From: Smithella sp.
Lineage (GTDB): Bacteria; Desulfobacterota; Syntrophia; Syntrophales; Smithellaceae
Direction: 5' to 3'
Assembly (NCBI GenBank): GCA_049517435.1
Contig: JBEKRZ010000014.1
Span: forward strand, 7,443-71,442
Length of the DNA: 64,000 nt
Positions 28,049 to 51,891 of the stretch are shown piece after piece; the first letter of the stretch is position 1; each line of letters opens with the position of its first letter. The notes beneath the pieces are model-generated. The model did no database searches, had not been told where the DNA came from, and was given only the letters and a program-made list of their open reading frames with translations. Both the position numbers and the translations under genes were made by a program.

Positions 28049-28951
28049 CTATGCGGAAAAGAAATAATAAAATTTGGGTTCCGCGTTCAAGTCTTCCTTT
28101 AATCGAAAGACCCTTTTATTTTCAATAAGATATCTTATTTCGCTGTTCGGATCGAGCAGGTTCCCGAATTTTCTGGTTCCCGTGGGACAGGCCTCCACGC
28201 AGGCGGGGTAACGCCCATTCCGGACCCGTTGGACACAAAACGTGCATTTTTCCACAACATTTTTCATACGGGGCCGGTTCCCCAGATAATGGACATCCGT
28301 ATTCAACTCTTTCACGGGAATATTGGGCTCGCCCCAGTTAAAAACCCGTCCCTTGTAAGGGCAGGCAGCAATACAATAGCGGCAGCCTATGCACCAATTG
28401 TAATCGACCACCACAATGCCATCCGGTTCCTTCCACGTCGCCTTGACTGGGCATACACGCACGCAGGGTGGATTTTCGCAATGCTGGCATTGAACCGGCA
28501 TGTACATGAACCCCGGCTCCGGCACTGTTTCCGGATTATAGTAGTGTTCGGCATTTTCGAGGTTGATCATACTCCCATTTTTCAATCGGACGACCCTGAT
28601 CCATTGGAGTTGCGGGTTGACCCGGGACTGATTGTTTTCTTTCACACAGGCGTAAACGCACCTTCGGCACCCGATACACCGCGACAGATCAAGGCCATAG
28701 CCCCAGAGAATCCCGGCACCGGCCGGCTTGGTGCTGATTTGAAATTTTTTCCCGTATTTTTTCAGGTACATCTCTTCCAATCGCCGGATAACCTGTTTCT
28801 TCTCTGTCTCAGACATTTCCCGGAAGTTCTTCTGAAGGAACTCTTCCACCTTGTCTTTAGTGCACGCCGAGCTTCCCAGGTAAAGCGCGGCCACGGTGCC
28901 CATGGACATCATCTTTATAAATTCTCTTCTGGTATGCGATCTATCTTCCAT
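28049..28951 (-). CDS. Tat-exported 4Fe-4S dicluster protein (NrfC/CbcT/HmcB-like)
   Basis: TRREFIK twin-arginine motif; CIGCRRCVYAC, CQHCENPPC, CIGCRYCIAACP, CTFC...CVEACP. Confidence 0.92.
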   Translation of the reverse strand: MEDRSHTRREFIKMMSMGTVAALYLGSSACTKDKVEEFLQKNFREMSETEKKQVIRRLEEMYLKKYGKKFQISTKPAGAGILWGYGLDLSRCIGCRRCVYACVKENNQSRVNPQLQWIRVVRLKNGSMINLENAEHYYNPETVPEPGFMYMPVQCQHCENPPCVRVCPVKATWKEPDGIVVVDYNWCIGCRYCIAACPYKGRVFNWGEPNIPVKELNTDVHYLGNRPRMKNVVEKCTFCVQRVRNGRYPACVEACPTGTRKFGNLLDPNSEIRYLIENKRVFRLKEDLNAEPKFYYFFSA

Positions 28952-29438
28952 ATGTCCGTTCCGGTTTGGTTGGTGGGGGTTCCGGTTTCAGGGGTTTGAA
29001 TTTAGGGTCATGGGGATTGTGACAATTCACACAAAGGAAATAAACCCTTTTCCCCCCTTTGAAATATCCGATCCTTTTGCCGTGGATGCCGACTTTCCAG
29101 TCGCGATAGATATTGCCGTGGCACTGTCCGCAGAGCAGGTAGGACTCCGTAAACTTGATGGTGTCCCCATTGGCAAGCTTCAATTTATCCCTGTCGGCTG
29201 GATTGTGACAATCAAGACACCAGCGGTCTTTTTCAGCATGGTGCAGTTTGATGTTGGTATGCTCATCCTTGAGTTCTCTCTTTTTTGCATTGACCTCCAG
29301 CCCCGCATGACAGTTGCTGCAGGGAAATATCCCCTCCGATAATGGGGGCATTAAAACAGGATATTCATCGTGGTGCAATGCGAACGCGGGCACGCCAAAT
29401 GCAATAATTGCGAATAAACATAGGAATCTTATTTTCAT
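28941..29438 (-). CDS. Periplasmic tetraheme cytochrome c (CbcS-like)
   Basis: Signal peptide; CSNCH, CLDCH, CGQCH, CVNCH. Confidence 0.88.
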   Translation of the reverse strand: MKIRFLCLFAIIAFGVPAFALHHDEYPVLMPPLSEGIFPCSNCHAGLEVNAKKRELKDEHTNIKLHHAEKDRWCLDCHNPADRDKLKLANGDTIKFTESYLLCGQCHGNIYRDWKVGIHGKRIGYFKGGKRVYFLCVNCHNPHDPKFKPLKPEPPPTKPERTYGR

Positions 29439-43491: not shown

Positions 43492-45030
43492 ATGGCAGAC
43501 ACAGATTTAAAACTAAAAGCTATTGACGCACTTGTTCATATCCACACAGCTATAAAGAATGTGCAACGACATCCATCTGTCGATCCGGCAATTACGAATT
43601 CCATTGAAACGCTTTATCTTCATCTTGTGGAAATATTGAAACAGGATGCGCCTCAAGTATTTGCGGAATTAGAAAAAAAATCCCTGCTTCGCGAAAAACT
43701 TTCCAATCAGCAGGAAGACGAAACGATTCATATTTCAGCCCTGCCGGATATCCTTCTCGGTTTAGGTATCAAGAACATTTCTTTCGATAAAGATTTGGAA
43801 AAGGAAGAACTGCATATTTTCATAAATCTTCTCGCGAAAAAGCCGAAAACTGTACACGATGAAGTTGGCTTGCCCAAACTAATATTGGAAAATGAAACTG
43901 CGCAGATCGTGCCGGATAATAAAGTATCTGTAACCATGGAAAAGGATCAGGTAATCGTATCCGACCGTGATATTGCGGAAAGTCAAATTTCTGAAAGTAT
44001 TGTCGAGATGCAGACAGTATTCACCCGTCTGAACGCAATGCATGGATCCATTGAATCTCTTCCTTCCGAAGAAAAAAGGGATATGATCAAAAGATTATCA
44101 GTACGAACGGCAGAGTGGATAGAGATGGAAACAGCCGTCACGTCTGCCTACAAAAAAATATGCCAGAGTTTGCAAACACTTCTTCAAGACTTCATCACCT
44201 ATGGATTCTTTGCCGAAGCAAATCCGATTATAGATGTCTTCAGTAAAATTAATACCGGCGCGCTGAAAAAAGATTATGAAGTGCGAAAGGTCTCTTTGGA
44301 AATTCTCCGAAACCTGGCATCAGAAAGTAATATTAACATCCTATTAAAAGAATTCAATACCAACGAGAAGCATGAATCAATTGAAGCCTTTCAAATACTT
44401 AACGGATTTGGCGACATTATAATGAACAAATTACTCAATATCGTACGGAATGCCAGCGATAGCAAAGAACGTATAAGCATTATCCATATTATTGAAGAAA
44501 TGGGGCATAGGGCAATACCGGCCATCATTGCAAGTATTACCATGAATGCTCCATGGTATTACTTGCGTAATATGGCCTACATACTCGGCCGTATTGGCAA
44601 TGAAACCAACGCTGATATACTTCGAGTTCTTTTGATGCATAAAGACAAGCGGGTCCACAAGGAGGCATTAAAAAGCATTGGCCAGATAGGAGGAAATAAG
44701 AAAGGACCATTACTTCTGTCTTTTCTGCCGCAGGCAGAAGGTGAATTGAGAGTTAATGTAATTGAAATGCTCGGTAAAATCAGATACACCGAAGCGGTGC
44801 CTGGTCTGCTGGATATGCTCAAGAACAAGTCCTTGATAGCTAAAGATGAGCAGATATCCTTGCAGGAAAAAATTTGCAACGCTCTTGGAACTATTGGCTC
44901 GCCTGAGGCGATAAAAATTCTTTCAGAAATTGCCGAATCAAAATCTATTTTAGGCATCGGGTCATACCCTAAAGAAGTCAAATCCGCCGCTGAAAGGGCA
45001 TTGGCAAACATAAAAAGAAAACAGGAATAA
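43492..45030 (+). CDS. HEAT-repeat protein
   Basis: WYYLRNMAYILGRIG, DKRVHKEALKSIGQIG, LRVNVIEMLGKI helical repeats; GGAGG RBS. Confidence 0.8.
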   Translation: MADTDLKLKAIDALVHIHTAIKNVQRHPSVDPAITNSIETLYLHLVEILKQDAPQVFAELEKKSLLREKLSNQQEDETIHISALPDILLGLGIKNISFDKDLEKEELHIFINLLAKKPKTVHDEVGLPKLILENETAQIVPDNKVSVTMEKDQVIVSDRDIAESQISESIVEMQTVFTRLNAMHGSIESLPSEEKRDMIKRLSVRTAEWIEMETAVTSAYKKICQSLQTLLQDFITYGFFAEANPIIDVFSKINTGALKKDYEVRKVSLEILRNLASESNINILLKEFNTNEKHESIEAFQILNGFGDIIMNKLLNIVRNASDSKERISIIHIIEEMGHRAIPAIIASITMNAPWYYLRNMAYILGRIGNETNADILRVLLMHKDKRVHKEALKSIGQIGGNKKGPLLLSFLPQAEGELRVNVIEMLGKIRYTEAVPGLLDMLKNKSLIAKDEQISLQEKICNALGTIGSPEAIKILSEIAESKSILGIGSYPKEVKSAAERALANIKRKQE

Positions 45031-45103: not shown

Positions 45104-46300
45104 ATGATTTCAAGACGTGATTTTTTAGTAACACTTGCAAAGCTGGCCGCGACAGTCGGCGGCACCGGCATGATTTTGTTCGATCCTTGCTGGCAGAAGT
45201 TTTTGGTTGGCGGCGATTCTGGCCTTGCCTTCGGAGATACTTATTTAGATGAACTTGTCCGATCAGCTCCAAAGGCCCGCTACTGGAGGCCGCTCACGAT
45301 AAAAGGCGATGGCTATCCCCCTGAGGAAACCATTGTTAGATGTCTTCTTTGCGCCAATGGCTGCGCTATTGTTAACGGTCAGCGGGGAAAATGCCGGACG
45401 CGCATGAATGTTAACGGAGAACTGAAGAGTCTTGTCTATGGCCGCCCCGTATCCATCCATATTGATCCGATCGAAAAGAAACCATTTTACCATTATCTGC
45501 CGGGGTCTGCGGCATATTCTCTTGCCACCGCCGGTTGTCCGCTCAGGTGCAAGTTCTGCCAAAACTGGGAAATCTCCCAGGCATCACCGGAAGATCATCA
45601 GGTTTCATTTACACCACCGGCCAAGATTGTCAATGGTGCTTACGCCAGCAAGGCGCCCGTTATTGCCTTTACTTATAATGAACCAACGGTTTTCACGGAA
45701 TATCTGACCGACATTGCCCGGGACGCAAAAAAGCAAGGTATTCGCTCGGTATTAATAAGCTGCGGATTCATGAACGAGGCGCCTCTCGCGGAAATGTGCA
45801 AGGTGCTTGACGCCATTAAGATCGACCTGAAGGGGTACAGCGAGGATTTCTACCGCACTGCGTGCGGAGTAGAGCTGCGACCCGTTCTCAGAAGCATCAA
45901 ACAGGTAGCGAAGAGCCGTGTCCATCTTGAAATTGTAAATCTGGTTGTACCCACATTAAATGATTCAGACAAGATGTTACAGGAACTGATAAACTGGATA
46001 TTGGGAGAAGTTGGTCCCGATGTTCCTGTTCACTTCACCCGCTTTCATCCCGATTACCAACTGCTGAATCTCCCTCCCACGCCTGTTGCCACGCTGGAAC
46101 GTGCCTATAACATGGCCATAGCTAAAGGGATGCATTATCCATACGTGGGGAATGTCCCTGGCCATCCGGGAAATCATACCTACTGTCCGAACTGCAAAAA
46201 GATTGTGATAGAGCGGCAGGGATTTTTTATAACAGGGATGAACATGAAGGATGGGTGTTGTAAATTCTGCAAACGAAAGATTGCCGGTGTGTGGGTATAA
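45104..46300 (+). CDS. amrS: AmmeMemoRadiSam system radical SAM enzyme with Tat-like signal
   Basis: SRRDFL motif; CLLCANGC..GQRGKCRTR; IDPIEKKPFYH; CPLRCKFCQNWEISQ (CxxxCxxC); FTYNEP. Confidence 0.9.
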   Translation: MISRRDFLVTLAKLAATVGGTGMILFDPCWQKFLVGGDSGLAFGDTYLDELVRSAPKARYWRPLTIKGDGYPPEETIVRCLLCANGCAIVNGQRGKCRTRMNVNGELKSLVYGRPVSIHIDPIEKKPFYHYLPGSAAYSLATAGCPLRCKFCQNWEISQASPEDHQVSFTPPAKIVNGAYASKAPVIAFTYNEPTVFTEYLTDIARDAKKQGIRSVLISCGFMNEAPLAEMCKVLDAIKIDLKGYSEDFYRTACGVELRPVLRSIKQVAKSRVHLEIVNLVVPTLNDSDKMLQELINWILGEVGPDVPVHFTRFHPDYQLLNLPPTPVATLERAYNMAIAKGMHYPYVGNVPGHPGNHTYCPNCKKIVIERQGFFITGMNMKDGCCKFCKRKIAGVWV

Positions 46301-46317
46301 AAGGAGGTTATAAGGAA

Positions 46318-47856
46318 ATGAAAATATTAGGATTGAGTTTTACACTGCCTTTCATCATTTTTTGTTTTGCCACGGCTTGCCAGGCGAATAAAGGGTCGGA
46401 CACGGATGTTCGTGAACCTGCTGTCGCGGGAAAGTTCTATCCTGAATCCGCGGCCAGGCTGAAGCTCGCCATAGAAAAATTTCTTCAGGACGCAGTTCCT
46501 ATCAAAGTTCAAAAACCGATTGCCATCATCGTTCCCCATGCCGGCTACATTTTCTCCGGTCAGCTTTGCGCCGATGGGTTCAAGCAGGTCAGTAATCAGC
46601 AATATGATGTGATTGTCATTCTGGGAACAAACCATACAAGCTCTAATTTTCAGAAAATTTCGCTTTATCCGGGCGACGGTTTTCGCACTCCATTAGGTGT
46701 GGCGCCGGTGGAAAAAAATATTATATCTTTACTTAAGAAGGCTGATCCAGCCGATTGTACTTTAGATAAATCACTTCATGAATCTGAGCATTCCGTCGAA
46801 GTAATGGTGCCTTTTATCCAAGTAGTTTTTCCTAAAGCAAAGATTGTTCCCGTTGTTGTCGGTTCACAAGATATGGAGATGTGCGCCCGCTTCGGTCAGG
46901 CGCTGGCGAAGGTTTTGAAAAACAAGAAGGCCTTGATTGTTGCGAGTTCCGATCTCTCTCACTATCCGGCTGCCCAAGATGCAAATATAGCAGACAGGGA
47001 GACCCTCGCGTCCATTGCCAAATTAGACCCCGCCGCGTTTCGCGCAACTGTGCAGGCGCATGTGGATAGACGTATTCCCAACCTTGTTACGAGTGCCTGC
47101 GGCGAGGCGCCAATCATGGCGGCAATGGCAGCAGCCAGATCTTTGGGCGCTACCCACGGCGTGGTCATCAGCTATGCCAATTCAGGAGATACGTCTGTAG
47201 GTGAGCGCTCGCGGGTTGTAGGATATGGCGCTGTTATATTAACTGCGGAAGGAGAAGATAAAAACATCAGTGTATCTGCTCAACCAACACTGTCTGCCGT
47301 ATCCGAACAGCTTACGTCAGCCGATAAAAAGAAATTGCTCGCCTTTGCCAGAAAAACCTTATCCCGATTATTTTTGACGGATACGGTTCCGTTGGCAAGG
47401 GGTTTTAATTCAACGCTCCAACAACCGCGCGGAGCTTTTGTAACACTCAAGAAAAAAGGCGCGCTTCGCGGCTGTATCGGCCGGATCATCGGAGATGAGC
47501 CCCTTGGCAAGATTGTCGGCGCAATGGCGATTCAGGCAGCCTTTAATGATAGCCGGTTTCGCCCGTTAACCGCCGATGAACTGAACGATATAGAAATAGA
47601 AATATCCGTGCTGACACCGATGAAACAGGTAGGCGGCGCCGCTGATGTTGTTATCGGCAGGGATGGAGTCTTGCTCAGCAAAGATGGCCATTACGCCGTT
47701 TTCCTTCCTCAAGTGGCAGCGGAACAAGGATGGAATCGTGAAGAATTGCTGGATAATCTTTGCAGGAAGGCAGGTTTGGAGACGGGATGTTGGAAACAGG
47801 GAGCGCAGTTCTCAACCTTTCAGGCTGTAGTATTCAGCGAATCCCAATTCAGATAA
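46318..47856 (+). CDS. amrB: AmmeMemoRadiSam protein B (MEMO1) fused to protein A (AMMECR1), with signal/lipoprotein peptide
   Basis: REPAVAGKFYP, PHAGYIFSG, EHSVEV, SSDLSHYP, CGEAP (MEMO); GAFVTL...LRGCIG, IEISVL, VFLPQVA (AMMECR1). Confidence 0.9.
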   Translation: MKILGLSFTLPFIIFCFATACQANKGSDTDVREPAVAGKFYPESAARLKLAIEKFLQDAVPIKVQKPIAIIVPHAGYIFSGQLCADGFKQVSNQQYDVIVILGTNHTSSNFQKISLYPGDGFRTPLGVAPVEKNIISLLKKADPADCTLDKSLHESEHSVEVMVPFIQVVFPKAKIVPVVVGSQDMEMCARFGQALAKVLKNKKALIVASSDLSHYPAAQDANIADRETLASIAKLDPAAFRATVQAHVDRRIPNLVTSACGEAPIMAAMAAARSLGATHGVVISYANSGDTSVGERSRVVGYGAVILTAEGEDKNISVSAQPTLSAVSEQLTSADKKKLLAFARKTLSRLFLTDTVPLARGFNSTLQQPRGAFVTLKKKGALRGCIGRIIGDEPLGKIVGAMAIQAAFNDSRFRPLTADELNDIEIEISVLTPMKQVGGAADVVIGRDGVLLSKDGHYAVFLPQVAAEQGWNREELLDNLCRKAGLETGCWKQGAQFSTFQAVVFSESQFR

Positions 47857-47860
47857 CATC

Positions 47861-50023
47861 ATGACCATTTCTCTTCTCGCCATTGGGCTGATTTCAATTC
47901 TGGGACAGGTTGTCCTGCTTCGGGAATTGAATGTTTCCTTCTACGGAGTAGAATTAATTTACATCCTGTCCCTGGGAATATGGTTATTCTGGACTGCCGC
48001 AGGTGCAGTCATCGGACGCCGAGTTCGTTTCCCATCGTTTACCCACATTGCGGTACTTTTTATCATCTTCGGAATCGCCATTCCTCTGGATATTGTGTTC
48101 ATCCGTTCCAGCCGTCTGATCTTTGGCGGTGTACCCGGCGCATACCTTACCTTTTTTCAGCAATTAATTGTTGTCGTCATTTCCATCCTTCCCGCGGGGT
48201 TGTTGTCCGGCCTTTTATTCCAGTGGACTGCAAAGGCATACGTGACAAAAGGCAGGACGCTGGCTGTAGCCTATGCTATTGAAAGCGCAGGCGGCTTAAT
48301 CGGCGGATTGTTTTCCACCCTTTTTATGATGTGGGGACTTCGGAATTGCTCTATAGCGTTTGTTTGCGCTCTTGTCTCAGTCATAACACCCTTAATCGTT
48401 TTAAGGGGATTAAAGACATCGCTTCTCCGCTGGACGGCAACTATCTTAGCTTGTATCTTTCTGGTGCTCATGTGGAAGACATCTTATCTGGATCGCCAGA
48501 TGACCATATGGAATCACCCGAATCTTTTGGAAAGCAGTGATTCTCCATATGGCAGAATTACCGTGACACGGCTGTACAATCAGATATCCGTTTTTGAAAA
48601 TGACGCCCTGTCATTTGAAACTGAGGGAACCGAAGCCGAGTACTTCTGCCACTTAGCGGCACTCCAGCACCAAAATCCTCGAGACGTGCTGATTCTGGGG
48701 GGTGGAATTGAAGGGATCGTCAGAGAAATGGAGAAGTACGGGCCGCGGCGAATTGATTATGTCGAACTCAACCCCGTCATGCTGAACCTGGTGACACGAC
48801 ATCTTCCTGATGACATCAGAAAGTCGCTTGGGAAACCGAACGTACATATTATATTTGCCGACCCCCGGCAGTATCTTAAAAAGAGCGGCATGTACGATCT
48901 CATTTTGGTCGGCATGCCGGAACCGGCATCGGGACAGGCAAACCGCTTCTACACGCAGGAGTTTTTCCAACAATGTTCCGCGAAACTGAATCCCAGGGGA
49001 ATTCTGGGCTTCAGGCTCCGCACGGCTGAAAATCTATGGACGATGCCGCTGACCAGACGCAACACAAGTATCTATAACGCTCTGCAATTTGTTTTTCCTG
49101 AAGCGCTGTTTCTCCCGGGAACAACAAATGTTGTGACTGCCTCTCACTCACCGCTGCCTAGAGAGCCGGAAATCATGTCCCGCCGGTTGCAGGACCGAAA
49201 AATAACGACAAAATTAATTTCACCAAATTACATCAATTATCTTTTTACAAACGACAGATTTTTCAAAATCAGAGATTTACTCCAGAGAGAAAAGGCGCTG
49301 CCTAATACCGACATCAGACCGGTTTGTTATCAGTATGCCTTTATAATCTGGTTGTCGAAGTTTTTTCCGCGCATCGCTGTGGTTGATCCATCTTCGATCA
49401 TGGATAAGGGTTTTTTAAAACCGCCTTTATCATTGTTTTTGTGGATCATCCTGCCCATCATCTTTCTCTTAACCCGCTTTCGGCCTACACTGCGCCGTGC
49501 AATGCTAGTCGCCGTAGCAGGATTTATGGGCATGGTTCTGGAAACAATCCTCATCCTTTATTATCAGGTAAAACACGGGGTTCTCTATCAGGACATAGGA
49601 CTGCTGCTGATGAGTTTCATGGCTGGTCTTGCTCTGGGTGCAATGATTATCAACAGAGAGATGGTCAGACCGATCGCCAATAGAATGCTCTTACGGTGGT
49701 ATGGTCTCAGCCTGCTCATCGGATTTTGTTTTTTATGCGCATTTACGGGAATGAGAGTAACAATGAGCATCTCCGGCGGTTTGGTCGAGATTTCATGTCT
49801 CCTGGCAATAGCGGGTTTTTTAGTCGCCGGTATTTTTGCCTACGCCAGCCTTCACGAAATTGAAGACCAGAAAAACGTAATTTCACCGCTATACTCGGCT
49901 GACCTCATCGGCGGATGTCTTGGCTCTTTCATTGCTAGTCTGATCTTAATTCCCTTAGTGGGCATGGATGTCACCACATGGGGAATGCTTCTGCTTGCCG
50001 CATTTTCTATTCTTCTGGTATGA
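47861..50023 (+). CDS. Membrane-fused spermidine synthase-like (MFS-like TMs + SAM-binding domain) protein
   Basis: N- and C-terminal TM bundles; SPYGRI, VLILGGGIEG, VELNP, DPRQYL, YDLI, NRFYTQEFF. Confidence 0.8.
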   Translation: MTISLLAIGLISILGQVVLLRELNVSFYGVELIYILSLGIWLFWTAAGAVIGRRVRFPSFTHIAVLFIIFGIAIPLDIVFIRSSRLIFGGVPGAYLTFFQQLIVVVISILPAGLLSGLLFQWTAKAYVTKGRTLAVAYAIESAGGLIGGLFSTLFMMWGLRNCSIAFVCALVSVITPLIVLRGLKTSLLRWTATILACIFLVLMWKTSYLDRQMTIWNHPNLLESSDSPYGRITVTRLYNQISVFENDALSFETEGTEAEYFCHLAALQHQNPRDVLILGGGIEGIVREMEKYGPRRIDYVELNPVMLNLVTRHLPDDIRKSLGKPNVHIIFADPRQYLKKSGMYDLILVGMPEPASGQANRFYTQEFFQQCSAKLNPRGILGFRLRTAENLWTMPLTRRNTSIYNALQFVFPEALFLPGTTNVVTASHSPLPREPEIMSRRLQDRKITTKLISPNYINYLFTNDRFFKIRDLLQREKALPNTDIRPVCYQYAFIIWLSKFFPRIAVVDPSSIMDKGFLKPPLSLFLWIILPIIFLLTRFRPTLRRAMLVAVAGFMGMVLETILILYYQVKHGVLYQDIGLLLMSFMAGLALGAMIINREMVRPIANRMLLRWYGLSLLIGFCFLCAFTGMRVTMSISGGLVEISCLLAIAGFLVAGIFAYASLHEIEDQKNVISPLYSADLIGGCLGSFIASLILIPLVGMDVTTWGMLLLAAFSILLV

Positions 50024-50053: not shown

Positions 50054-50689
50054 TCAGATCCATTTGAGGATTCCCGCAAATACAATTAAAGCAATAGCGT
50101 TAATGGTGAAAAGAGAACCGATAAAAAGTTTTTGTGCCCGGAGTTGCCAGTCATGCACGTAACAGGCGGCGGCGAAAAAGGGGATATAAACCGTCACAAA
50201 AACCGGGAAAGCGCCCCACCATCCATAGACCCACACGAAAGTCGGCGTCTTAGCCAAGAATATTTCCAGAATGGAGGCAAAACCGGCATTGGCAACTGTA
50301 AAGGCCCAACGGTTATTGATGCCCAGAATTTTCAGCGTGGGGTCTTTGGGCATTAGCTTGCAAACAACTATTCCGGCGATAGCGAACATTAGATTAATTT
50401 CGATTCCGACACCAACCATTATTTCAAAGGCCGTTCCGGCAGGCACCGTCCACAGAGCGTGACCGGAAAAATGCTGGATGAGCGCGTTGACTATTTCCAC
50501 AAACCAGTGGACCATGTAAAGGGCCAGCCCTCCGGCGATAACGCGATAATTGCCCTTTTGGTACTCGTTGGCATAGATGTAAAGGACGATAACAAGGAGA
50601 GGTATGACATACCACTGGAACGTATTGCCGCTCCTTAAAATGTTCAATGCCTGCTGGGTTGCTTCCTGGTTGTTTAAATTCATAGCCAT
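50054..50689 (-). CDS. Hypothetical integral membrane protein
   Basis: About 6 hydrophobic segments; GGAGG RBS. Confidence 0.7.
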   Translation of the reverse strand: MAMNLNNQEATQQALNILRSGNTFQWYVIPLLVIVLYIYANEYQKGNYRVIAGGLALYMVHWFVEIVNALIQHFSGHALWTVPAGTAFEIMVGVGIEINLMFAIAGIVVCKLMPKDPTLKILGINNRWAFTVANAGFASILEIFLAKTPTFVWVYGWWGAFPVFVTVYIPFFAAACYVHDWQLRAQKLFIGSLFTINAIALIVFAGILKWI

Positions 50690-51168: not shown

Positions 51169-51891
51169 TCATCTAAGGTATCCTTTAAACAAATAATCCA
51201 AATCATCTACCATCCGGCTGTCTATAGAGAAGTTTACGCTGTCGGCAAAAATATCAAGCACGACAACAGCATTGAGATTAGCGTCTTTACCCCCGATAGT
51301 CCTGAGCCTTTTACAAAAGCTTTCGTTAACGACCCTTATATTCTCATACGTCTCAGCAAGTTTCTTCAAATCCCAATCAGGCTGAATGCCACGCTGATAT
51401 AAGAAATACTGAGCCAGTAGATACATCGAAATGGCGCGATATTTAGTTTCCTCTATCGTGGCAAAGGGCAGATGAAAACGCACCATAGGTTTTAACTTTT
51501 CAAGAATAGGGCACCCGCTGGTAACCATATATATACCGATCAGAGAACTAACGCCGTGCTGTAAATTTACTCTCTTAATATATTTTCTTTCTTGCGCGGT
51601 AACAATAACCTCTACCGGTTCGTGAGAAACGAAATTGCTGAAGTAATTTATGATATCTATCATATTCACGGCTATGGGGCAGAATTCGTATTGACGTTCA
51701 TCCAGAATACAATTAGGGCACTTAAAACAGCTGAGTTTTGTCCATTCAGGGCAATCTTTATCTCCTTTTTGTATTAAATTAAAAGTGACTCTGTCTAACT
51801 CAATGTTAAACTCTTTCTCCCTCCCGTTGTTGAATATAAATTTGTAATTGTATGTTATTTTACCTGTAAAACTGCGTCTATCATCATTCAT
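51169..51891 (-). CDS. DUF6901-like Cys-containing protein
   Basis: WTKL..FKCPNC, CPIA, TSGCP, RFHLPFA pattern. Confidence 0.6.
   Translation of the reverse strand: MNDDRRSFTGKITYNYKFIFNNGREKEFNIELDRVTFNLIQKGDKDCPEWTKLSCFKCPNCILDERQYEFCPIAVNMIDIINYFSNFVSHEPVEVIVTAQERKYIKRVNLQHGVSSLIGIYMVTSGCPILEKLKPMVRFHLPFATIEETKYRAISMYLLAQYFLYQRGIQPDWDLKKLAETYENIRVVNESFCKRLRTIGGKDANLNAVVVLDIFADSVNFSIDSRMVDDLDYLFKGYLR

Follow-up and report, generated by a model that had tools for sequence, protein, structure and literature searches.

Radical SAM enzymes, which depend on S-adenosylmethionine (SAM), form one of the largest enzyme superfamilies and are treated as strictly cytoplasmic, given their needs for SAM, a strong reductant and Fe-S assembly. 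The radical SAM enzyme AmrS, Memo (protein B) and AMMECR1 (protein A) make up the canonical AmmeMemoRadiSam system, a trio with human homologs whose function is, to our knowledge, not known. Memo-AMMECR1 systems are said to have been defined by Burroughs et al. 2019. Here, we analysed a 64,000-nt stretch of a Smithella sp. contig (the window, which means that whole stretch) and found that three genes at positions 45104-50023 encode an AmrS, a Memo-AMMECR1 fusion and a membrane protein, all with features of extracytoplasmic proteins. We consider it probable that this operon is an extracytoplasmic, periplasm-facing AmmeMemoRadiSam system, the second one in a genome that also holds an ordinary cytoplasmic set. 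This reading is drawn from the conserved leaders, the signals on the partner proteins, the tracking of TatC by the leader type, a membrane topology shared by 38 of 38 homologs and co-occurrence at the genome level.

The locus resembles the canonical system in that the three models TIGR04335 (protein A), TIGR04336 (protein B) and TIGR04337 all score above their cut-offs, the genes are clustered, and the CX3CX2C and flanking Cys motifs are present. In contrast to the canonical system, it has N-terminal export signals, a B-A fusion and a dedicated partner with 14 transmembrane (TM) helices, and it is a second copy of ancient divergence in a genome that also has a leaderless set. The three genes lie on the + strand and fill the interval 45104-50023 with gaps of only 17 nt (AmrS stop to fusion start) and 4 nt (fusion stop to membrane protein gene); judged by this tight coupling, they are an operon. 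Its features are as follows.

45104..46300, + strand: AmrS radical SAM enzyme, 398 aa (TIGR04337, PF04055 Radical_SAM).
45104..45184, + strand: predicted twin-arginine-type leader MISRRDFLVTLAKLAATVGGTGMILFD, with the arginine (RR) pair at 45113-45118 (motif conservation, rarity in the genome, TatC in the genome).
45536..45559, + strand: CX3CX2C radical SAM cluster motif, C145, C149 and C152 (invariant in alignment A1).
46303..46307, + strand: Shine-Dalgarno sequence GGAGG, 10 nt before the fusion start (direct reading of the sequence).
46318..47856, + strand: Memo (protein B)-AMMECR1 (protein A) fusion, 512 aa (TIGR04336, TIGR04335, PF01875, PF01871).
46318..46380, + strand: predicted Sec or lipoprotein-type signal peptide MKILGLSFTLPFIIFCFATAC with Cys21 (direct reading of the sequence).
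47861..50023, + strand: 14-TM membrane protein, 720 aa, with an MFS-like 6+6 core and a TM7-domain-TM8 insert (AlphaFold2, hhalign).
48479..49405, + strand: SpeE-fold (aminopropyltransferase-like) nucleotide-binding domain, residues 207-515, predicted to be periplasmic (PF01564, 1uir, Foldseek, positive-inside rule).

The AmrS protein scored 360.6 bits against TIGR04337 (cut-off 220) and also matched PF04055 Radical_SAM, and its best protein matches were proteins of Smithella metagenome-assembled genomes named "AmmeMemoRadiSam system radical SAM enzyme". Since the TIGR04337 match spans residues 75-397, the protein carries an N-terminal extension of ~74 aa. The three cysteines of the cluster motif do not vary across the 24 diverse homologs of alignment A1, and the motif position was also found in representative proteins. 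The initial annotation had noticed that AmrS begins with SRRDFL and a hydrophobic stretch, and this was borne out: the N-terminus reads MISRRDFL followed by a run of 13 uncharged residues (LAATVGGTGMILF), and residues 3-9 (S-R-R-D-F-L-V) fit the twin-arginine translocation (Tat) consensus S/T-R-R-x-F-L-K. Orthologs of 398-413 aa have this N-terminus in common. MISRR[DEK]FL is retained in all sampled orthologs down to 71% identity and the hydrophobic stretch drifts in sequence, not in character, which is how signal peptides evolve. R4 and R5 are likewise invariant in alignment A1, whose members were all preselected for an RR leader. Such a leader is rare in this genome. A strict Tat pattern, [ST]RRxF[LIVM] followed by at least 12 uncharged residues, occurs in 6 of 2221 long open reading frames (ORFs); AmrS is among them, and the other five include a NiFe-hydrogenase small subunit, a Rieske-like protein and a polyferredoxin. 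The genome also encodes TatC (256.7 bits, contig C6).

The second protein scored 255.7 bits against TIGR04336 (cut-off 26) and 172.4 bits against TIGR04335 (cut-off 99), and it matches the Pfam families Memo (PF01875) and AMMECR1 (PF01871). It shows the Memo motifs PHAGY, GTNH, DLSH and ACGE together with the AMMECR1 motif RGCIG. The start of this gene is likely ATG 46318 and not GTG 46291, because GGAGG precedes the ATG by 10 nt. The fusion and its signal ending in FATAC had been recognised before; with the start corrected to ATG 46318, the signal stands, and Cys21 closes the predicted signal peptide.

For comparison, we collected 80 related loci by a scan of one genome per species that covered more than 10 phyla, including Thermodesulfobacteriota, Acidobacteriota, Latescibacterota, Ignavibacteriota, Omnitrophota and Planctomycetota. 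Leaders are present on 71 of the 76 assessable AmrS genes, with 55 Tat-class, 6 RK-like and 10 Sec or TM-type leaders; the looser classifier used for this assignment, which we wrote ourselves as we did all signal classifiers here, marks only 3.7% of the ORFs of the Smithella genome as Tat-class. Many of the 150 best AmrS relatives in a search of 1.84 billion representative proteins also have RR leaders or N-terminal TM segments. The initial annotation had suggested comparing the neighbourhoods of signal-bearing amrS genes, and in these loci a signal-bearing Memo-AMMECR1 fusion and a membrane gene recur. Memo is fused to AMMECR1 in 34 of the 36 loci that hold Memo, and 35 of 37 Memo N-termini are hydrophobic and signal-like (Sec or lipoprotein), in many cases with a Cys following. 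When the count was restricted to the 39 leader-bearing AmrS loci whose flanks reach 5 kb or more on each side, a SpeE-like membrane gene was present in 26, Memo and AMMECR1 in 22, and both in 18. In addition, 16 of 17 genomes with an RR-type AmrS leader have TatC, versus 4 of 13 with a Sec-type leader (Fisher p = 0.0004 with visual grouping and 0.015 with classifier grouping), a pattern that functional export signals would be expected to produce. Direct observation thereby covers the features of the sequences, how far they are conserved and which of them occur together.

Some of these loci differ in their export signals and neighbours. AmrS proteins from Omnitrophota and Elusimicrobiota (L031, L034, L045, L048, L053, L068, L069 and L078) have a plain Sec-type signal peptide, and most of the genomes of these phyla with a Sec-type AmrS showed no TatC; the neighbourhood of AmrS includes a gene for a DsbD_2-type membrane protein. 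The Tat-leader AmrS has as its direct neighbour, in 19 of the 80 loci (L030, L036, L041, L044, L049 and 14 more; e.g. L049:6673-7690), a DUF362 protein that itself bears a twin-arginine leader, and a DUF6599 lipoprotein occurs in 10 of the 80. Neither a DUF362 protein nor a DUF6599 lipoprotein is present in the window.

The third gene had been described as a multi-TM SAM-dependent transferase. The membrane part of this description holds, with 14 predicted TM helices, and so does the link to a transferase fold: PF01564 Spermine_synth (63.5 bits) is the one Pfam match of the protein. An AlphaFold2 model built with 32 homologs (pLDDT 89.1, pTM 0.89) shows seven helices, a domain of ~310 residues and seven more helices. 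In an hhalign comparison, TM1-6 and TM9-14 were found to be homologous (97.8% probability, E 1e-12), and these halves, an internal duplication, share one orientation, pointing to a 6+6 core of the major facilitator superfamily (MFS) type with TM7, the domain and TM8 inserted in its central loop. A Foldseek search with the whole model was uninformative on the membrane part because the SpeE-fold domain dominates the matches. When TM1-6 was modelled alone (pLDDT 94.8), the top 50 Foldseek matches in the PDB were nearly all MFS/ENT transporters; the TM1-6 sequence profile gave no match among solved structures at E up to 10. The short loops on the side of the N-terminus contain 14.5 lysine and arginine residues versus 3.3 on the opposite side. 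The bias recurs in 38 of 38 homologs and is also seen when either half is taken alone. By the positive-inside rule, the SpeE-fold domain is therefore predicted to face the periplasm. We also observed invariant charged residues at the outer membrane face (R21, E22, E31 and E141) and conserved acidic residues at matching positions of the two TM repeats (E141 and D681).

The part of the earlier proposal that did not survive is the aminopropyl chemistry. The best sequence match of the domain among solved structures is the aminopropyltransferase-type 1uir (E 7.7e-17), and Foldseek TM-scores to aminopropyltransferases are 0.74-0.78. Scores stay far below the equivalog cut-offs, with 74 versus 249.55 bits for TIGR00417, 89.2 versus 260 for PRK00811 and 107.9 versus 472 for PRK03612. 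Aminopropyl transfer by SpeE relies on three residues, the Asp of GGGDG and both Asp of D-S-S-D-P, to position the amine of the aminopropyl group and to take a proton from the acceptor. None of these is conserved in the 38 homologs; the window protein has GGGIEG and GMPEP at these positions, and the family consensus for the latter is P-x-P. The protein has kept the Glu of YVELNP for ribose binding and the Asp of FADPR for adenine binding. Furthermore, no AdoMet decarboxylase (PF02675) was matched in this 98.4% complete genome by a search that was positive in 7 of 14 control genomes, and no SpeE-family gene other than that of the membrane protein was found in the genome. Aminopropyl transfer from decarboxylated SAM (dcSAM) is therefore rejected, and the aminopropylating role that the initial annotation had considered is contradicted; spermidine in this organism, if it is made, would need a route independent of dcSAM. 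From the residues retained, we infer that the ligand of the SpeE-fold domain is SAM or an adenosyl compound akin to it. The family conserves P-x-P...Q-x-NRFYT-x-EFF at the active-site loop with an invariant Arg362 in NRFYT, and it is speculation that this Arg pairs with the SAM carboxylate. The role of the membrane protein may be export, given the MFS-like core, or another SAM-dependent transfer. Very long frames with partial SpeE-like matches were seen in two related loci (L074 and L084), and we suspect these to be artefacts of high G+C.

The genome contains a second AmrS of 336 aa without a leader (C12:81333-82343), whose gene neighbours one for a class I methyltransferase. Memo and AMMECR1, also leaderless, are encoded by two individual genes of another contig (C4:113941-115302). 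By their gene content, these three make up a complete canonical set in the same genome. In a tree of 146 AmrS cores, the window copy falls inside a well-supported clade of Tat-leader proteins and the paralog inside a well-supported clade of 26 rows, 25 of which are leaderless; the leader state is clustered on the tree, with 0 of 500 shuffles as low. A recent duplication of the cytoplasmic AmrS is rejected as the origin of the window copy, since the two copies lie in different well-supported clades. We also surveyed 201 genomes of the phylum of the window, where AmrS is present in 191 and a full-length homolog of the membrane protein in 78. At least two AmrS copies are found in 72 of the 78 genomes with the membrane protein versus 16 of the 123 without it (odds ratio 80, p 3e-31, uncorrected for shared ancestry), and in many genomes of the phylum with both, the AmrS and membrane protein genes adjoin.

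The relatives of AmrS give hints about the electron supply. Some are fused to DsbD_2, to FMN_bind and NapH-like Fer4_5, or to CBM_11, and in two of them (P0127 and P0136) a single signal anchor is followed by FMN_bind and then by AmrS, without a TM helix separating these parts. Such FMN_bind domains undergo flavinylation outside the cytosol, where they function in electron transfer (PMC8238504); radical SAM, Memo and AMMECR1 go unmentioned in that paper. Of the 80 related loci, 9 have NapH-like genes and 8 have DsbD_2 genes. A linker with CxxCH and a His 10-16 residues later (usually 12-16) was found in 13 of 82 related AmrS proteins from five phyla; these are the 13 closest non-Smithella orthologs (L013-L026, e.g. 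L016:8001-9224 and L018:8001-9236). This insert looks like a covalent heme c site, and covalent attachment of heme at CxxCH takes place in the periplasm. The Smithella AmrS has no CxxCH insert (window 45260-45330) and the Smithella operon encodes no electron carrier; the genome does encode Fe-S proteins that are exported as judged by their leaders, such as the hydrogenase small subunit.

Further variety was seen in the domain composition of the relatives. The fusion-bearing AmrS proteins are P0124, P0127, P0129, P0130, P0134, P0136, P0137, P0138, P0144, P0140 and P0172, and, besides the fusions named above, of which that with CBM_11 adds a carbohydrate-binding module, AmrS is also joined to a beta-propeller or forms one chain with Memo and AMMECR1 that follows a single signal or anchor. 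Within the window, a polyferredoxin (Fer4_11) of 312 aa at 28051-28987 on the - strand carries a twin-arginine leader (TRREFI) and may have a lipobox (GSSAC). This protein, ~17 kb upstream of the operon and a Tat-exported Fe-S protein by its leader, is conceivable as a periplasmic electron carrier.

A scheme for the localisation, SAM handling, electron source and substrate class of the system may be as follows. Both the folding of AmrS and the insertion of its [4Fe-4S] cluster would take place in the cytoplasm; AmrS would then cross the membrane by the Tat pathway through its SRRDFL leader, to be either released or anchored by the uncleaved leader. The Memo-AMMECR1 fusion would leave through Sec and would probably be lipid-anchored at Cys21. 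In the membrane protein, the TM7/TM8 hairpin would hold the SpeE-fold domain on the periplasmic side of the MFS-type 6+6 core, and the protein might bring SAM across the membrane or remove by-products, presenting the cosubstrate to the exported AmrS. Electrons would come from low-potential periplasmic carriers, for which relatives encode links of their own, namely the CxxCH linker, the FMN_bind/NapH-like modules and the DsbD-like modules. Given an extracytoplasmic location, the substrate should be a periplasmic or envelope molecule.

The tests that we ran on leaders, partners, TatC, topology and co-occurrence all came out in favour of the earlier idea of a periplasmic variant linked to the membrane protein, where the location of each of the three proteins is predicted from its sequence. 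Several observations weigh against this reading. The hydrophobic stretch of AmrS, at 13 residues, has the minimum length for Tat, and the sole Ala-x-Gly/Ala site, in a conserved LAFG, lies ~17 residues past this stretch, which makes cleavage uncertain; the leader may instead remain uncleaved as an anchor. The lipobox of the fusion, F-A-T-A-C21, is atypical when compared with the consensus [LVI][ASTVI][GAS]C at the end of the signal peptide, since positions -1 and -2 fit and -3 is Ala, not Leu, Val or Ile. The MFS assignment of the membrane core is weak: the Foldseek matches of TM1-6 have E-values of 0.05-0.7 and query-normalised TM-scores of 0.5-0.6, Pfam MFS models do not match the membrane protein, and NF037959 ("fused MFS/spermidine synthase") scores 26.7, below its cut-off of 40. 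The genome-level statistics leave shared ancestry out of account. Sec-type AmrS leaders in TatC-less genomes, where Sec would be the route for an exported Fe-S enzyme, are hard to reconcile with loading of the Fe-S cluster in the cytoplasm. We also know of no SAM, and of no reductant strong enough for radical SAM chemistry, in the periplasm. The handling of SAM by the membrane protein, which we infer only from the lost and retained residues, is the weakest step of the scheme.

We compared the periplasm-facing reading with other explanations. The system could be exported as proposed with the membrane protein being an enzyme, whose SpeE-fold domain transfers a methyl or 3-amino-3-carboxypropyl group from SAM and whose MFS-like core flips or presents a lipid or amphipathic substrate. 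Such a role is suggested by the SAM-type transferase fold with its adenosine-binding residues kept, by the strong conservation of the active-site loop motif and by the four invariant charged residues at the outer membrane face, and lipid carriage is common among MFS folds. We nevertheless regard it as unlikely, because periplasmic SAM would still be required and the supply problem stays, no catalytic base is conserved at the former SpeE Asp positions, and the operon has no evident substrate gene. The supply problem would disappear if AmrS were exported with SAM prebound and regenerated the cofactor as lysine 2,3-aminomutase does, in which case the membrane protein would move a substrate or product, for example a cationic small molecule. 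The Tat pathway exports folded, cofactor-loaded proteins, and E141 and D681, at their matching repeat positions, would suit a cationic cargo. However, AmrS is closest to glycyl-radical activases (58 bits to the models of the pyruvate formate-lyase activating enzyme, PFL-AE), which consume SAM, and a periplasmic nucleotide-binding domain kept in 38 of 38 homologs is left unexplained, so that this explanation appears quite improbable.

It could also be that the proteins act on the cytoplasmic side, with the SpeE-fold domain in the cytoplasm and the RR leader being a membrane tether or a vestigial or chaperone-binding Tat motif as in NarG. All radical SAM chemistry known to us is cytoplasmic, remnant Tat motifs do occur in cytoplasmic enzymes, and the Sec-type leaders on some AmrS relatives fit poorly with the export of an Fe-S protein. 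Against this stand the ordinary, cleavable Sec or lipoprotein signals on the Memo-AMMECR1 partner in 35 of 37 cases, the charge bias, which for 38 of 38 homologs, and for either half by itself, puts the domain outside, the tracking of TatC presence by the leader type, and the AmrS fusions with FMN_bind and CBM_11 that sit behind a single signal anchor; taken together, these make a cytoplasmic site of action decidedly improbable. That the leaders are mere artefacts of wrong start codons or chance hydrophobic stretches can hardly be credited. One gene caller did begin a homolog (P0082) at an internal Met23, and the initial annotation had raised the concern that the true starts might lie downstream of the signals. 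Against an artefact, proteins of different phyla keep the MISRR start, no alternative start codon with a ribosome-binding site was found between signal and domain in the fusion gene, and the strict motif is confined to the six ORFs mentioned above.

In its most complete form, the periplasm-facing reading would make this the first radical SAM system outside the cytoplasm, with a Tat-exported AmrS, a lipid-anchored Memo-AMMECR1 fusion, an MFS-type SAM exporter with a periplasmic SpeE-derived domain that holds SAM, low-potential electrons from the periplasm and an envelope or periplasmic target, spread over many phyla of uncultured anaerobes. We put this full form forward as plausible but tentative. 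In the searchable literature, we found no description of a Tat-exported or periplasmic radical SAM enzyme.

The genes on either side of the operon do not seem to take part in it. A HEAT-repeat protein of 512 aa with PBS-lyase type repeats (43492-45030, + strand) ends 74 nt upstream of AmrS. A multi-TM protein of 211 aa without a family match (50054-50689, - strand) is convergent with the end of the operon, and a DUF6901 protein (51169-51891, - strand) lies behind it. Counterparts of these three genes were found in 0 of the 80 related loci, and we leave the three outside the module, to which the HEAT-repeat gene probably does not belong.

Conserved extracytoplasmic signals on all parts of such a system are unexpected, since radical SAM enzymes are viewed as relying on the SAM and the reductant of the cytoplasm. 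If the reading is true, a widespread and conserved clade of AmrS proteins that bear export signals and have a membrane partner of their own would either overturn the assumption that these enzymes act only in the cytoplasm or reveal a new supply of SAM and electrons across the membrane. An exported paralog would narrow the search for the substrate of the trio to the envelope, and the membrane partner would add a protein with a measurable ligand. This partner is not rare, as its presence in 78 of the 201 sampled genomes of the phylum shows.

The system can finally be compared with other described proteins. The nearest characterised radical SAM relatives of AmrS are the activases of glycyl-radical enzymes (PFL-AE, TIGR02493/TIGR02494), at ~58 bits. 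This score is far below the family cut-offs, the locus has no glycyl-radical enzyme as a partner, and the activases are cytoplasmic. Tat-exported Fe-S proteins such as the NiFe-hydrogenase small subunit and Rieske proteins, of which the same genome holds examples, share the S/T-R-R-x-F-L leader on a cofactor-loaded passenger; they differ in that no radical SAM enzyme was found to be described as a Tat substrate in the searchable literature. Modules for extracytosolic electron transfer (NosR/NapH-like PF12801 with FMN_bind, and the DsbD family; PMC8238504) are fused to or lie beside relatives of AmrS, a link that fits electron supply across the membrane, whereas the operon in the window encodes none. 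The domain of the membrane protein shares with SpeE of T. thermophilus (1UIR/3ANX) the fold, the ribose Glu, the adenine Asp and the LFT-x-EF(Y/F) loop. Unlike SpeE, it has no conserved Asp in GGGDG/DSSDP, is set between TM7 and TM8 with a predicted periplasmic location, falls far short of the equivalog cut-offs and occurs in a genome in which no dcSAM synthesis was detected. The membrane-bound SpeE-like proteins NF037959 and PRK03612 are similar in combining a polytopic membrane region with a SpeE-like domain, but the window protein stays below both models (26.7 versus 40 and 107.9 versus 472), and its domain is placed in the middle of a 6+6 core rather than at a terminus.

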